Counted from the first letter of the stretch, positions 1,164 to 13,366 are shown. The stretch: DNA of 14,827 nucleotides from a virus (IMGVR_UViG_2534681999_000018:1-14827), one strand, 5' to 3'. Notes: generated by a model not told the origin, from the letters alone. Translations and numbers: made by a program.

Positions 1164-2167
1164 ATCAGGTGAACGAGAGCCATAGCCGCGCATCCGATAT
1201 CTGGCGCGAAGTGGCCTCGCTGTTTCGCCCACCCAGCCGGTTACCAGTAGCGGAAGCCATCAGGCGTTATATGCGGGTTCCACGGGGAGCCAATACTTCC
1301 GGTCCGTGGGAGTCATCGCTGACGCCCTATATGATTGACCCCATTAATACATTATCAGCCCGTGAATATGACGCGGTGGTGTTTGTGGGACCTGCGCGAA
1401 CCGGGAAAACCGAAGGGCTGATTGATGGCTGGATTGTGTACGGCATCATCTGTGATCCGGCGGATATGCTGGTGGTGCAGATGACTGAGACGAAGGCGCG
1501 TGAGCATTCCAGAACGCGTCTTTCCAGGACGTTTCGCCACAGTCCGGAGGTCAGCAAGCGCCTCAGTCCTTCCCGTAATGACAACAACGTCCACGATAAA
1601 ATGTTTCTTGACGGCTCCTTCCTGAAGATTGGCTGGCCGTCGATCACCGTCTTTTCCTCTTCGGATTACCGTCGTGTGGCGCTGACGGATTATGACCGTT
1701 TCCCTGAAAATGTGGACGGGGAAGGGGATGCCTTCACGCTGGCCTCAAAGCGTACCACCACCTTTATGTCCTCGGGGATGACCCTGGTCGAGAGTTCACC
1801 GGGGCGGGATATCACCGATACCAAATGGCGTTGTGGTGGCGCACATGAGGCACCGCCAACAACGGGGATCCTGTCACTGTATAACCGGGGAGACCGCCGC
1901 CGGTGGTACTGGCCGTGTCCGCACTGCGGGGAATATTTTCAGCCGGTGATGGATAACATGACCGGATACCGGAATAACCCGGATTTTGTGGCTGCCGGTC
2001 AGGCTGCCCGTCTGATGTGTCCGCATTGTCGCGGGCTGATTGCCCCTGAGCAGAAACGCGAACTGAATAACCAGGGGATCTGGCTTCGTGAAGGTGAACG
2101 GGCGGCGGCGGACGGCAGTATCACCGGAACGCCACGAAACTCCCGGATTGCGTCATTTTGGATGTAG
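1160..2167 (+). pseudogene. Terminase large subunit (GpA family), N-terminal ~half only; 3' truncated at the junction with the integrase element
   Basis: 335-aa ORF starting at GTG; Walker A-like GPARTGKTEG and CPHCGEYF...CPHCRG zinc-ribbon-like motif align with the N-terminal ATPase region of lambda gpA (641 aa); ORF stops about 160 bp before the integrase start. Confidence 0.65.
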
Positions 2168-2328
2168 GGTACATTTCTTACCTGTTTGTATGTTCTGGTG
2201 TCGTTTCATAGTCTTTTCAATGAGTTGTGATTTTATGAGTTTCCTCTCTTTGCTTGATAATGAGTTAGTTTATCGCTTGTTATTGGCTTGAATGGACTAC
2301 ATGACGGACTAAAAAATGAGGGCGATAG

Positions 2329-3567
2329 ATGTCGGTAAAGCCATTAACCGTGACTGAAGTTAAGGGGATGAAACCACGTGAAAAGGACTATGCCGTTTAT
2401 GATGGGTTCGGTTTATTGCTGAATGTGAGTAAAGCCGGTGGGAAAGTGTGGCGTTTCCGTTATAGCCATCCGATAACGAAGAAACGGCAGACATACACGA
2501 TAGGACGTTTTCCTGAATTCTCACTCGCGGAAGCACGGGAAGTACGTGATGAACTTCGGCGAATGATTGCACGTGGAGTTGATCCAGTGACGGAGAAGAA
2601 AAATCGTAAAATTGAGATGTCACTAAAAAATCTACAGACATTTGAAGCTGTTGCTAATGCATGGTTCGCTTTTAAAAAGGGATCTGAATTGCGGAAACCT
2701 ACGCTGTATAATATCGAATATGAAGTATACAAATATCTTGTTCCTTTCTTTGGTAAGTACAGTATAGAAAAAATTACAGCACCAGTAGCTATTAATGCTC
2801 TGGATGCCGTATCCGATAAGAATGCGTTGCAAAAAAAATTAATATCAAGATTAAATGAAATTATGAATTATGCTGTAAATTGTGGAGCATTGAAAGCAAA
2901 TCCATTACTTAAGATAAAGACTGCATTCACAGGAAAGAAAAATAAATCATTAGCAGCACTACCTGTTGAAAGATTGCCTGAATTTCTGAGCTGGTGGGAT
3001 AGTGTGCCTCATACCTATCAAATAGCTCATAATGCACTTTTATTCCAGATATTGACAATGGTCAGGCCAGGTGAGGCGATTAAAGCAGAGTGGTCAGAGA
3101 TTGATTTTGATTCTGGCTTGTGGATTATCCCCGCGCATAAAATGAAATGCCATCGTGAACATGTTGTTCCCTTGTCATCACAGGCTATTAGTATCCTCAG
3201 AACAATGCAGGAAATAAAAAGAGGGCGTTATGTGTTTTTTTCCTCCAGAACAAAAGATGCGCCTATGGGGAGGAATACTATCAAGACCCCAATTGCTGCC
3301 AGTAAGTTCAAAGGGATTGTAACGTTACATGGTTTTCGTTCAATGTGGAGTACGCTTTTAAATGAGGAGGGATTTAACCCCGATGTAATCGAGGCTGCAT
3401 TGGCGCATAAAAGTGGTGATAAAATAAGAGATATTTATAATAGAACTATTTATCTAGAACAGCGTAAGATCATGATGCAATGGGTCGGTGATTTTTTTGA
3501 TGATGCGAGAAAAGGGGTAATTAATAGATCCGGTGGTATGAAAGGTTTAAGAGTAGTAAATGGTTGA
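2329..3567 (+). CDS. int: Tyrosine integrase, P4-type (N-terminal arm-binding DUF4102-like domain plus catalytic domain)
   Basis: 412-aa ORF; catalytic-domain motifs including HGFRSMW (H-x-x-R) and a C-terminal tyrosine region (KIRDIYNRTIY); gene is visibly AT-rich relative to flanks. Confidence 0.92.
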   Translation: MSVKPLTVTEVKGMKPREKDYAVYDGFGLLLNVSKAGGKVWRFRYSHPITKKRQTYTIGRFPEFSLAEAREVRDELRRMIARGVDPVTEKKNRKIEMSLKNLQTFEAVANAWFAFKKGSELRKPTLYNIEYEVYKYLVPFFGKYSIEKITAPVAINALDAVSDKNALQKKLISRLNEIMNYAVNCGALKANPLLKIKTAFTGKKNKSLAALPVERLPEFLSWWDSVPHTYQIAHNALLFQILTMVRPGEAIKAEWSEIDFDSGLWIIPAHKMKCHREHVVPLSSQAISILRTMQEIKRGRYVFFSSRTKDAPMGRNTIKTPIAASKFKGIVTLHGFRSMWSTLLNEEGFNPDVIEAALAHKSGDKIRDIYNRTIYLEQRKIMMQWVGDFFDDARKGVINRSGGMKGLRVVNG

Positions 3568-3580
3568 GGAGGTTCAGCAA

Positions 3581-3784
3581 ATGAATACCAATGAAGATAT
3601 TTTATTTACTAAAGACGTAATGAAAATCTTGCGATATGGAGCAATGAGTGCATTCATCAATTTCTGGAAAGATGAGAATAATGGTTTTCCTCAGCCGTTC
3701 AGAATTGGACGACGACATACCTGGCACCGTAGAGATGTAGAAGCATGGTTAGATAAACAACGAGAACAAGCCAATCCCCACTAA
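3581..3784 (+). CDS. AlpA-family DNA-binding protein (excisionase-like regulator)
   Basis: Track ORF 3560..3784; start placed at the internal ATG 3581 preceded by GAGGAGG; motif FPQPFRIGRRHTWHRRDVEAWL is typical of the AlpA/phage transcriptional-regulator family; directly downstream of int. Confidence 0.7.
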   Translation: MNTNEDILFTKDVMKILRYGAMSAFINFWKDENNGFPQPFRIGRRHTWHRRDVEAWLDKQREQANPH

Positions 3785-3796
3785 TAATATCTTTCA

Positions 3797-3823
3797 TACC
3801 CCGCGTGCAATGCGGGGTTTTTT
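3797..3823 (+). terminator. Rho-independent terminator after int-alpA
   Basis: Stem CCCCGC / GCGGGG with a 7-nt loop, followed by TTTTTT. Confidence 0.6.
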
Positions 3824-3843
3824 GTATGTGAGGTAAAAAAGAA

Positions 3844-12229: not shown

Positions 12230-12257
12230 CAGACGCGCAATTATTGAACAAAAATGA

Positions 12258-12319
12258 GAAAGGATCTGATAATGGCATTTTCTGGCTAAAATGCCTCGTG
12301 TCAGATCCTTTCTTTTTTT
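12258..12319 (+). terminator. Compound hairpin terminator after the Nu1-like gene
   Basis: Outer stem GAAAGGATCTGA / TCAGATCCTTTC enclosing inner stem GGCATTTT / AAAATGCC, followed by 7 T. Confidence 0.6.
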
Positions 12320-12379
12320 AATATTTTCATTGTTAAACAGTCTGTTACAGAGAAGAAGATCGGATCTGACTTTTGCCGG

Positions 12380-12451
12380 AAAATTCTCATAAACAGATAA
12401 AAACCGCGAGGTCGCCGCCCCGTAACGGGCCATAATTCCAGGAAGGACCCG
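12380..12451 (-). other. Lambda-type cos site, copy 2, inverted (cosN reverse complement AGGTCGCCGCCC at about 12409-12420)
   Basis: 12404-12451 is the exact reverse complement of 11511-11558 (48 bp); further lambda-like sequence (TTTATGAGAATTTTCCGG on the minus strand) continues toward the Nu1-like gene. Confidence 0.75.
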
Positions 12452-12484
12452 ACGACACCAGACTATCAGAGCGATGGGGGCACA

Positions 12485-12766
12485 ATGACAGAAGCCGAAC
12501 TACTGGGATTAATCCGCCGCGTCGCCGGAATCAGCCAGCAGCATGACGAACAGGCCACACAGCCGGACAGCGTGACCGCTGAAAATTATGTGCGTGTTGT
12601 AGCGGAAGTGATGCGCCGTGATGGTATAGAACTTAATGGCGTTGATATGCGCAACATACGGAACCGCGTTCTTGAAATGCTGGCCTACAATCGCCGCGTT
12701 GAACTGTATCGGGAGAAAGAAAAAATAACGTACCACTGGAAGAAGCCGGAACGGCTGCGGCGGTAA
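12485..12766 (+). CDS. Hypothetical protein
   Basis: 93-aa ORF with GGGGG RBS; outside the inverted cos pair; no recognisable motif. Confidence 0.5.
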   Translation: MTEAELLGLIRRVAGISQQHDEQATQPDSVTAENYVRVVAEVMRRDGIELNGVDMRNIRNRVLEMLAYNRRVELYREKEKITYHWKKPERLRR

Positions 12767-13366
12767 CTTGCTGATATTCCCGATAACGCAAAATTGCGCT
12801 GGCTACATCCTCACATCTGAGGACTGTTAATCAGAAGGCCGGAATATATTCACAAACTACGAAATTTTCGTAGTTTAATTAATGGTCAGATTAATCGCTA
12901 ACCCGCTGATATTTTCGGAAACCTCAATTTGAGGAAGTCGGAAGCGTCACCCTTCATATTCTGAATGGTCATAATGACCACGCAGACCATCAAGGCAACC
13001 ACAACGAACATCGTTACGGTTGGAGCTTTTACCCCACTGGGGGAAAGGTATTACGATAATCATAACACCTACCGAACAGGTAAAACCCACCAGCCTGATT
13101 AACAGTTAACCGGAAAAAAAATCCGGTAGCCCCGTTATGGGGATCCCCATATCGACATTAACGCCCCTCATGAATTGGTGCGCTTCCCCCTGGAAAGATT
13201 ACCCGCCTGTATATTTCTTGTGTCTATTTGTTCCACGTTGTTTCATACAGTGCACCGAACGGTGTAGTTAATGGTGTAGTCAATTTGCTGTTTTTAGCAC
13301 TTTTTGCAGTGTGGGTTGTTTAATTAAATCAATGGGTTGCCTTGCTGTGGTGATAAAAGGACATAT

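Follow-up and report, generated by a model that had tools for sequence, protein, structure and literature searches.

A phage-satellite block between a split prophage terminase gene and phoQ in Escherichia coli, read as the junction of two known kinds of satellite

The sequence IMGVR_UViG_2534681999_000018:1-14827 (referred to throughout as the window, that is, the whole stretch of 14,827 nucleotides, to which all coordinates apply) runs from a lambdoid prophage into the chromosomal gene phoQ, and between the two lies a block of about 11 kb with an integrase gene at its left end, a replication module and, towards the right, capsid genes and a packaging signal. The question that this locus raises is whether the block is one integrated satellite with a layout outside the known families, as a preliminary description of the sequence had it, or an arrangement of familiar parts. 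Judging from sequence comparison, it is phage-satellite DNA composed of rearranged ordinary parts rather than the representative of a new satellite family. On balance we favour the view that it is the recombinant junction of two known kinds of satellite in Escherichia coli, the front of one (element A) and the back of another (element B), brought together by an inversion spanning the terminus.

Two parental elements and the point where they meet

The left part of the window, from position 1 to about 4925, shows 99.9% identity to a lambdoid prophage whose large-terminase gene (terL) harbours a helper-embedded phage-inducible chromosomal island (HE-PICI; PICI, phage-inducible chromosomal island), and in strain 57_142493 the prophage together with its terL-embedded satellite matches positions 1-5102 at 99.8% identity. 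In its complete form element A is a 10.4 kb satellite that interrupts terL, in the same orientation as that gene of the Stx-type (Shiga toxin-type) lambdoid prophage, and it carries an integrase, a helix-turn-helix (HTH) protein, a Bro-N protein, a primase, a single-strand DNA-binding protein (SSB) and a ClpP-protease/capsid fusion. Its contribution to the window is the left part of the block, about 2.7 kb, comprising attL, the integrase, an AlpA-like protein, Bro-N and YlcI.

The right part, from about 5047 to 14827, corresponds with 99.97-100% identity to a Gram-negative PICI of the classical cos type, situated between roxA and phoQ in E. coli O157:H7; when 5426 complete E. coli genomes were searched by megablast, the element that many O157:H7 strains have at roxA-phoQ matched positions 4882-14827 at 100% identity. 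Element B measures 11.2 kb and is bounded by precise att repeats. Its site is empty in K-12, where the roxA-phoQ spacer measures 75 bp, and the unit recurs in hundreds of genomes. To the block it contributes about 8.4 kb, with RgdR, a RepA helicase, an iteron origin, SSB, PchE, a gpE-like capsid protein, a gpD-like decoration protein, a Nu3-like fragment, a pair of cos sites (cos1 and cos2) on either side of a small terminase gene (terS, product TerS), and attR.

The ends of the block reflect this double origin. Homology of the terL fragment to the intact gene of VT1-Sakai stops at about 2164-2169, at the attL core TTGGATG, while the core on the roxA/phoQ side is GGACATATTT; each parent alone has a matching pair of cores, and the block combines one from each. 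The preliminary description had placed the ends of a single integrated element at 2160 and 13300. They are more exactly 2158-2164 and 13359-13368, and the idea of one element is contradicted by the fact that the left flank and attL come from an HE-PICI in terL and the right flank and attR from the PICI at roxA/phoQ, the integrases of the two being only 22% identical. Since the integrases are this divergent and the att cores differ, the hybrid, with attL and integrase from A and attR from B, cannot, to judge from this mismatch, be excised by site-specific recombination.

The change from one parent to the other can be followed site by site. The window carries the alleles of A at 4886 and 4925, and those of B at 5047, 5060, 5078 and onward, and the join must therefore lie within 4926-5046, inside the Icd-like gene. 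The 121 bp that the parents share here are their longest exact identity in strain 57_142493, where the runner-up measures 85 bp, and joining the left of A to the right of B from that strain in silico gives a sequence that differs from the window at 5 of its 14,827 positions. In 57_142493 element B lies on the plus strand at 1.485-1.496 Mb and element A on the minus strand at about 2.85-2.86 Mb; they are thus inverted with respect to one another and 1.37 Mb apart, and the same inverted arrangement, with a spacing of about 1.3 Mb, is found in F765 and NCCP 13918.

We propose that homologous recombination took place between A and B within the shared Icd-like tract. Because the repeats in A and B are in inverted orientation, flanking the terminus region, such a crossover would invert the segment between them, and one of the new junctions would consist of the N-terminal part of terL, the integrase of A and its neighbours as far as the Icd-like gene, the rest of B, and phoQ, which is the order of the window. 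The inversion would leave a reciprocal junction elsewhere in the genome, running from roxA and the integrase of B through to the primase and ClpP/capsid fusion of A and the C-terminus of terL. In the hybrid, the integrase of A would face attL of A and attR of B, so that this satellite would be grounded, as would its reciprocal partner and the prophage that has been split.

Competing accounts of the join

There are precedents for such an event. In O157, crossovers at short repeats of prophages are documented to have produced inversions across the terminus; one of these used a repeat of 174 bp and was confirmed by PCR and optical mapping (PMC7430833). The inversions described for O157:H7 (Iguchi 2006; Stanton et al. 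2020, PMC7430833) resemble the present case in that short inverted repeats within mobile elements on opposite replichores recombine and leave chimeras at both ends; they differ in having two lambdoid prophages as endpoints, where we would have two satellites, and the inversion here is one that we infer.

Several observations weigh against our proposal. None of the 5426 complete genomes contained at least 80% of the window in one place when the whole of it was used as a megablast query, and the chimera was absent from the 26, 26 and 78 contigs that carry neighbouring proteins as well; context look-ups with exact proteins (the 154 amino acid protein of B, and Bro-N and YlcI of A) returned only the normal parental contexts. 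Species-representative genomes gave no match to the exact junction pattern, a result of little weight given that the pattern also fits EcCI042-like elements. The reciprocal junction that the inversion would create is a prediction, the steps that we suggest below for the life cycle of the TerS-bearing variant are drawn from relatives, and a mis-join by an assembler, too, would put the switch precisely in the longest repeat that A and B share.

That last possibility, in which an assembler or scaffolder joined contigs of A and B at the Icd-like repeat and both satellites are really intact, is one that we take seriously while considering it somewhat doubtful. It would account for a switch lying exactly in the longest exact repeat of the two, since 121 bp is below or near common k-mer and read lengths, as well as for the absence of the arrangement from the complete genomes and from all contigs inspected, and for the near-identity of both halves to the normal elements of a single strain. 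However, modern assemblers usually break at unresolved repeats rather than join across them, real inversions of O157 have occurred at a repeat of similar length (the 174 bp case), and the geometry of A and B, inverted and flanking the terminus, is that which tolerated inversions require.

The remaining accounts take the block as a natural unit. A single intact satellite of about 11 kb, belonging to a new family and with its own att sites between the terminase gene and phoQ, is very improbable, even though gene order is continuous and co-oriented and all satellite modules are present: related genomes have the two flanks at loci separated by 1.37 Mb, the cores of attL and attR are unlike and belong to different elements, each of which has an empty site of its own, the integrase fits the left att only, the single-nucleotide differences form a clean parental switch, and the layout is that of known PICIs. 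That the block is what decay has left of an ordinary lambdoid prophage, and not satellite DNA, we find hardly credible. Prophage lysis and terminase genes do adjoin cos sites and lambda-like genes for capsid, decoration and TerS proteins, but such a remnant does not sit easily with an 11.2 kb unit that has precise att repeats, an empty K-12 site and hundreds of occurrences, nor with an organisation of int, alpA, replicase and origin, nor with closeness to the named PICI EcCI042 and an architecture in common with EcCICFT073, which has been mobilised experimentally.

If the inversion by way of A and B is real, phage satellites would join prophages and insertion sequence elements as endpoints of inversion in O157:H7, and one crossover would be able to immobilise two satellites and a prophage. 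For annotation, the case illustrates that a block running from integrase to TerS, although it resembles a single satellite, can be made up of two. Only the present junction is new, its parts being of known kinds and both parents common in sequenced genomes, and the current understanding of satellites is unchanged by these results.

The packaging end

The packaging signal named in the preliminary description is real. The exact 12-mer of lambda cosN, GGGCGGCGACCT, occurs twice in the window, once on each strand, and with up to two mismatches there are four matches where 0.95 would be expected. Each exact copy lies in one arm of an inverted repeat of 76 bp (11511-11586 and 12376-12451, the arms being 91% identical) that brackets terS. 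Compared over its full length, the TerS protein shows 36% identity to lambda Nu1, and for the C-terminal two-thirds (61-167) the figure is 48% against TerS from the Sakai prophage Sp14, which itself has a lambda-type cosN. Because exact lambda cosN sites and a Nu1-family TerS occur together without large terminase (TerL), portal or tail genes, dependence of this packaging end on a cos helper of the lambda type is supported, as was originally suggested for the block.

This sets the block apart from the prophage beside it. The cos region of the flanking prophage (448-650) has a cosN that differs from that of lambda, and the lambda 12-mer is absent there. Complete HE-PICIs copy the cos of their host prophage: the parent of element A has, near its 3' end, an internal copy of the host cos region with an 85% match (locus L002, 25689-25890). 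The hybrid is without that copy and has a lambda-type cos instead, so that by its sequence it adjoins one type of prophage and yet bears the packaging signal of another.

In EcCI042 the protein between the cos sites is Rpp, of 144 amino acids (RppC, PDB 6HLK, E=4.5e-31). We considered whether the TerS of the window might be a form of Rpp and rejected this, there being no sequence match in PDB and no BLASTP similarity to the Rpp of EcCI042. When the window is aligned with EcCI042, the two are identical through cosQ-cosN of cos1 (as far as about 11575, unrelated beyond) and again from cos2 on. The differences are confined to cosB1, the gene between the cos sites and cosB2, and they stop sharply where the inverted repeats lie (the EcCI042 sites being at L005 18993 and 19732). 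The cassette with TerS is present in 766 of the 5426 complete E. coli genomes and is thus a common one. From this alignment, the inverted cosQ-cosN pair may delimit an exchangeable cassette for packaging specificity, made up of cosB1, TerS or Rpp, and cosB2. That TerS and Rpp replace one another so cleanly, while the inverted cos sites around them are conserved, is a small lead, offering a natural pair in which use of an own TerS can be set against hijacking by Rpp on an otherwise identical late module. Two sequences within the cassette are putative recognition elements for TerS, namely a (GGT)5 run at 11586-11600 in the satellite-specific cosB1, and an inverted repeat, ATACACCAAC...GTTGGTGTAT, directly before the terS start.

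By analogy with EcCICFT073 and EcCI042, the life cycle of the intact element B would begin when a helper phage turns on AlpA, after which the island would be excised by its integrase and replicated by means of RepA, the iterons and SSB. TerS would then bind the private cosB of cos1 and recruit the gpA-type TerL of the helper, which would cut at the lambda-type cosN and fill heads and tails built by the helper. Such recognition of a private cosB and recruitment of helper TerL is likely by comparison with work on the TerS of SaPIs (Staphylococcus aureus pathogenicity islands) and on Rpp (PMC6739421).

A wider reading would take the two themes together: a real and in principle reversible inversion of 1.37 Mb, with satellites as its endpoints, that grounds both of them and splits terL and the late operon of the helper prophage, and, separately, a cos-bracketed cassette that PICIs swap to change between replacing and hijacking the helper TerS. 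We hold this tentatively, and rather doubt that both parts are right as stated.

Relatives of the two halves and other features

The gene content in the preliminary description proved to be present and largely correct, gene by gene, on comparison with Pfam and PHROGs. Its iterons are real, and the Pfam and PHROGs scans bore out its statement that portal, TerL, tail and lysis genes are missing: no such gene, and no holin or head-tail connector gene, was detected in 2165-13358. Its further statement that there is no protease or scaffold needs to be softened, as the open reading frame (ORF) at 11068-11481 resembles the Nu3-like C-terminal end of gpC-type proteases, aligning to positions 495-567 of the 583 in PHROG 53 and being 35% identical to residues 416-493 of the 501 in Sp14 gpC from Sakai. 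The layout itself, described as one outside the known families, is the known layout of E. coli PICIs and the standard one among those of enterobacteria. Features of the window are collected in Table 1.

Table 1. Features of the window, with strand and the match or comparison on which each assignment rests
Feature	Position	Strand	Evidence
cos region, flank of Stx-type lambdoid prophage	448..650	+	99.8% identical to VT1-Sakai; upstream of DUF1441 gene
Prophage DUF1441 protein, in small-terminase position	687..1163	+	PF07278 E=3.8e-48
Prophage large terminase (gpA family), N-terminal ATPase part only, cut by satellite insertion	1160..2167	+	PF05876 E=6e-82
attL core TTGGATG of element A	2158..2164	+	Compared: attL, attR (L002 ~26575), attB in intact VT1-Sakai terL
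Integrase of element A, P4-type tyrosine recombinase	2329..3567	+	Arm-DNA-bind_3, Phage_int_M, Phage_integrase
Small HTH regulator/excisionase of element A, AlpA-like	3581..3784	+	HTH_17 E=0.005 (under Pfam cutoff); PHROG 66 E=1.7e-7
Bro-N anti-repressor-like protein ('Bro zone')	3844..4422	+	PF02498 E=5.6e-20; PHROG 2593 E=4e-86
YlcI/YnfO family small protein	4543..4722	-	RefSeq annotation of identical DNA; PHROG 949 E=2e-23
15 bp stem-loop directly 5' of Icd-like gene	4852..4888		Inverted repeat; no Rfam match
Icd-like gene holding the proposed crossover tract	4917..5114	+	RefSeq annotation; PHROG 1743
Proposed crossover tract, 121 bp identical in A and B	4926..5046		Site-by-site allele comparison
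Three small ORFs of element B (70, 154 and 77 amino acids)	5107..5999	+	PHROGs 340, 2512, 2196, all of function unknown; annotated in identical O157 DNA
DUF4222 protein, RgdR (ECs1581) orthologue	6005..6304	+	PF13973 E=1.6e-24
RepA-type replicative helicase/initiator (AAA_25)	6301..7701	+	PF13481 E=2.4e-43; PHROG primase/helicase families
Iteron-type replication origin	7700..7892		Six AAAGTGAGG-type copies, directly 3' of helicase
Single-strand DNA-binding protein (SSB)	8150..8560	+	PF00436 E=9e-16
PerC-family regulator, PchE type	8571..8843	+	PF06069 E=1.2e-42
gpE-family major capsid protein	9652..10707	+	PF03864 E=5.5e-50; 43% identical to lambda E, 100% to EcCI042
gpD-family head decoration protein	10720..11055	+	PF02924 E=5e-18; 100% identical to EcCI042
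137 amino acid protein like the C-terminal Nu3/scaffold-like end of gpC-type prohead proteases	11068..11481	+	PHROG 53 E=4.7e-9
cos1, cosQ/cosN then satellite-specific cosB	11511..11686	+	Exact lambda cosN at 11542-11553
Nu1-family small terminase (TerS), 180 amino acids	11687..12229	+	PF07471, 82.6 bits; position of Rpp in EcCI042
cos2, inverted cosQ/cosN copy	12376..12451	-	Exact lambda cosN at 12409-12420 (-)
Conserved 93 amino acid protein	12485..12766	+	PHROG 1561 E=2.7e-58; 92% identical to EcCI042 protein
Doubled 12-mer GGTGTAGTCAAT beside attR of element B	13261..13284		Likely integrase arm-type sites
attR core GGACATATTT of element B, overlapping phoQ stop codon	13359..13368		Compared: attL (L001 6268-6277), empty K-12 site
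phoQ, chromosomal flank	13367..14827	-	99% identical to K-12 phoQ

The PICI model of SatelliteFinder has five core components, these being an integrase, AlpA or another regulator, a primase-replicase, a capsid-morphogenesis gene (Phage_cap_E) and TerS, and 97% of complete 'Type A' PICIs are found in E. coli (PMC10085698). Measured against classical PICIs, the block has a tyrosine integrase at one end of a co-oriented set of genes (all annotated genes are on the plus strand, with YlcI the sole exception), its own replicase with an origin directly 3', a capsid homologue (Phage_cap_E) with a decoration protein (HDPD), and a TerS (Phage_Nu1) with two exact lambda cosN sites, and it is free of tail, holin, portal and connector genes. 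The closest relatives are EcCI042 (also written EcCIO42, the island of E. coli 042) and EcCICFT073 (Fillol-Salom et al. 2018, 2019). With these the window shares the order of int, an alpA-like gene, small ORFs including the Icd-like gene, RgdR, replicase, origin, SSB and PerC, followed by gpE-like and gpD-like proteins, the 137 amino acid ORF, cos1, a small packaging gene, inverted cos2 and the 93 amino acid ORF. Besides identical capsid and decoration proteins, EcCI042 has the 137 and 93 amino acid ORFs at 98% and 92% identity and the same two inverted exact lambda cosN sites, a pair that also matches cos1 and cos2 of EcCICFT073. Both cos sites of EcCICFT073 are functional, and the island encodes a capsid protein (c1499) and a head-decoration protein (c1500) (PMC6092414); its helper-dependent induction, excision, replication and high-frequency transfer are experimentally established (PMC6092414, PMC6739421). 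Neither c1499 nor c1500 showed a phenotype in EcCICFT073, which relies on the TerS of its helper. The differences are that EcCI042 has Rpp where the window has TerS, that the right half of the window is integrated at roxA/phoQ and not at tqsA, and that the left end of the block does not come from the integrase module of the EcCI042/EcCICFT073 family. In PICIs, in HE-PICIs and in capsid-forming PICIs (cf-PICIs) alike, the 93 amino acid gene is the final one at the 3' end, and its DNA is 85% identical to that of element A.

HE-PICIs are known from cognates of lambda late genes, gene A among them, with which they are co-oriented, and are organised in four zones for integration, Bro, replication and late functions (Tommasini, Mageeney and Williams 2023; PMC10111431, 10.1101/2022.07.18.500453). 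The left 2.7 kb of the block, with attL in a gpA-family terL, a co-oriented integrase, an AlpA-like protein and the Bro zone, is like them, and is 99.9% identical to complete elements embedded in terL. The right two-thirds of an HE-PICI, with primase, ClpP/capsid fusion, helper-type cos and an attR in the C-terminus of terL, are missing, and in their place stand the modules of another satellite and a chromosomal attR; the right junction is accordingly at phoQ rather than in terL. Complete HE-PICIs in terL have a copy of the ClpP-protease/major-capsid fusion of their own, a few kb from that of the prophage (L002 23776-25665 and 29401-31380). An integrase of 412 residues with the same set of domains occupies the equivalent place in other terL-embedded elements, and the gene in the window is identical to the copy in 57_142493, which lies within a complete element; from this identity and position we assign it to the clade that targets prophage late genes. 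The candidate AlpA-type regulator beside int gives the weak match listed in Table 1, and the clear Phage_AlpA of the element B parent is located outside the part present in the window. In the flanking prophage, the DUF1441 protein is annotated in Stx phages as the small terminase subunit. Sakai Sp14 was examined as the possible site of the prophage that holds element A, and that prophage is absent there.

The prototype cf-PICI, EcCIEDL933 (Sp7, CP-933C, O-island 51), uses the same roxA-phoQ att site in Sakai and EDL933 and likewise has RgdR and PchE, but carries a full HK97-type set of capsid, protease, portal, adaptor, connector, HNH, TerS and TerL genes, a module that is absent from the window; its portal, protease, adaptor/connector, HNH and TerL genes are all found in Sakai Sp7. 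Element B is not SpLE2 of Sakai, which lies at 2.74 Mb; the Sakai roxA-phoQ site is occupied by Sp7. Two further loci, at roxA-phoQ (L013) and at tqsA (L014), have the replication-zone genes of the window in the same order, including an identical 154 amino acid protein, together with an HK97-type cf-PICI module; in neighbouring loci these genes are also paired with the gpE/gpD/TerS module, and in Sakai Sp7 (L026) the HK97-type module at roxA-phoQ accompanies a different primase. From these combinations of genes, late modules have evidently been exchanged between PICIs and cf-PICIs within E. coli. Satellites of the P4 type, with the psu-delta-sid operon, epsilon and an alpha primase-helicase, are similar only in the P4-type integrase and the AlpA-like HTH protein; in Pfam and PHROGs, families of the Psu, Sid, Delta or epsilon type were hit by no ORF of the block.

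Among the replication and regulatory genes of element B, the position of the iterons agrees with PICI origins in general, which are likewise placed 3' of the replicase (PMC6092414). All four exact copies of AAAGTGAGG in the window fall within 7701-7890, and no shuffled sequence reached this count. The DUF4222 protein is identical to ECs1581 at 80 of 99 residues and keeps RGD at residues 20-22; ECs1581 is RgdR, a regulator of motility and of the enterocyte effacement locus (LEE) (PMC3378721). The PerC-family protein is identical to Sakai PchE at 81 of 90 residues. RgdR and some PerC homologues are regulators of the LEE type III secretion island, and the satellite carries one of each type.

No tRNA genes were found in the window, and a promoter scan performed no better than on shuffled sequence. 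Upstream of the Icd-like gene, the position of the stem-loop recalls RNA control of the P1 c4-icd or P4 CI type, and element B has a different stem sequence at this point. A P1 c4- or P4 CI-type RNA was rejected, as Rfam gave no match there, whether the gathering threshold was applied or E values as high as 1 were allowed. At the other end of the block, the doubled 12-mer beside attR has a similar counterpart beside attL of element B (L001 ~6404-6427), and these motifs are probably arm-type sites for the integrase of element B; a doubled motif in attP regions has been reported by Tommasini et al.

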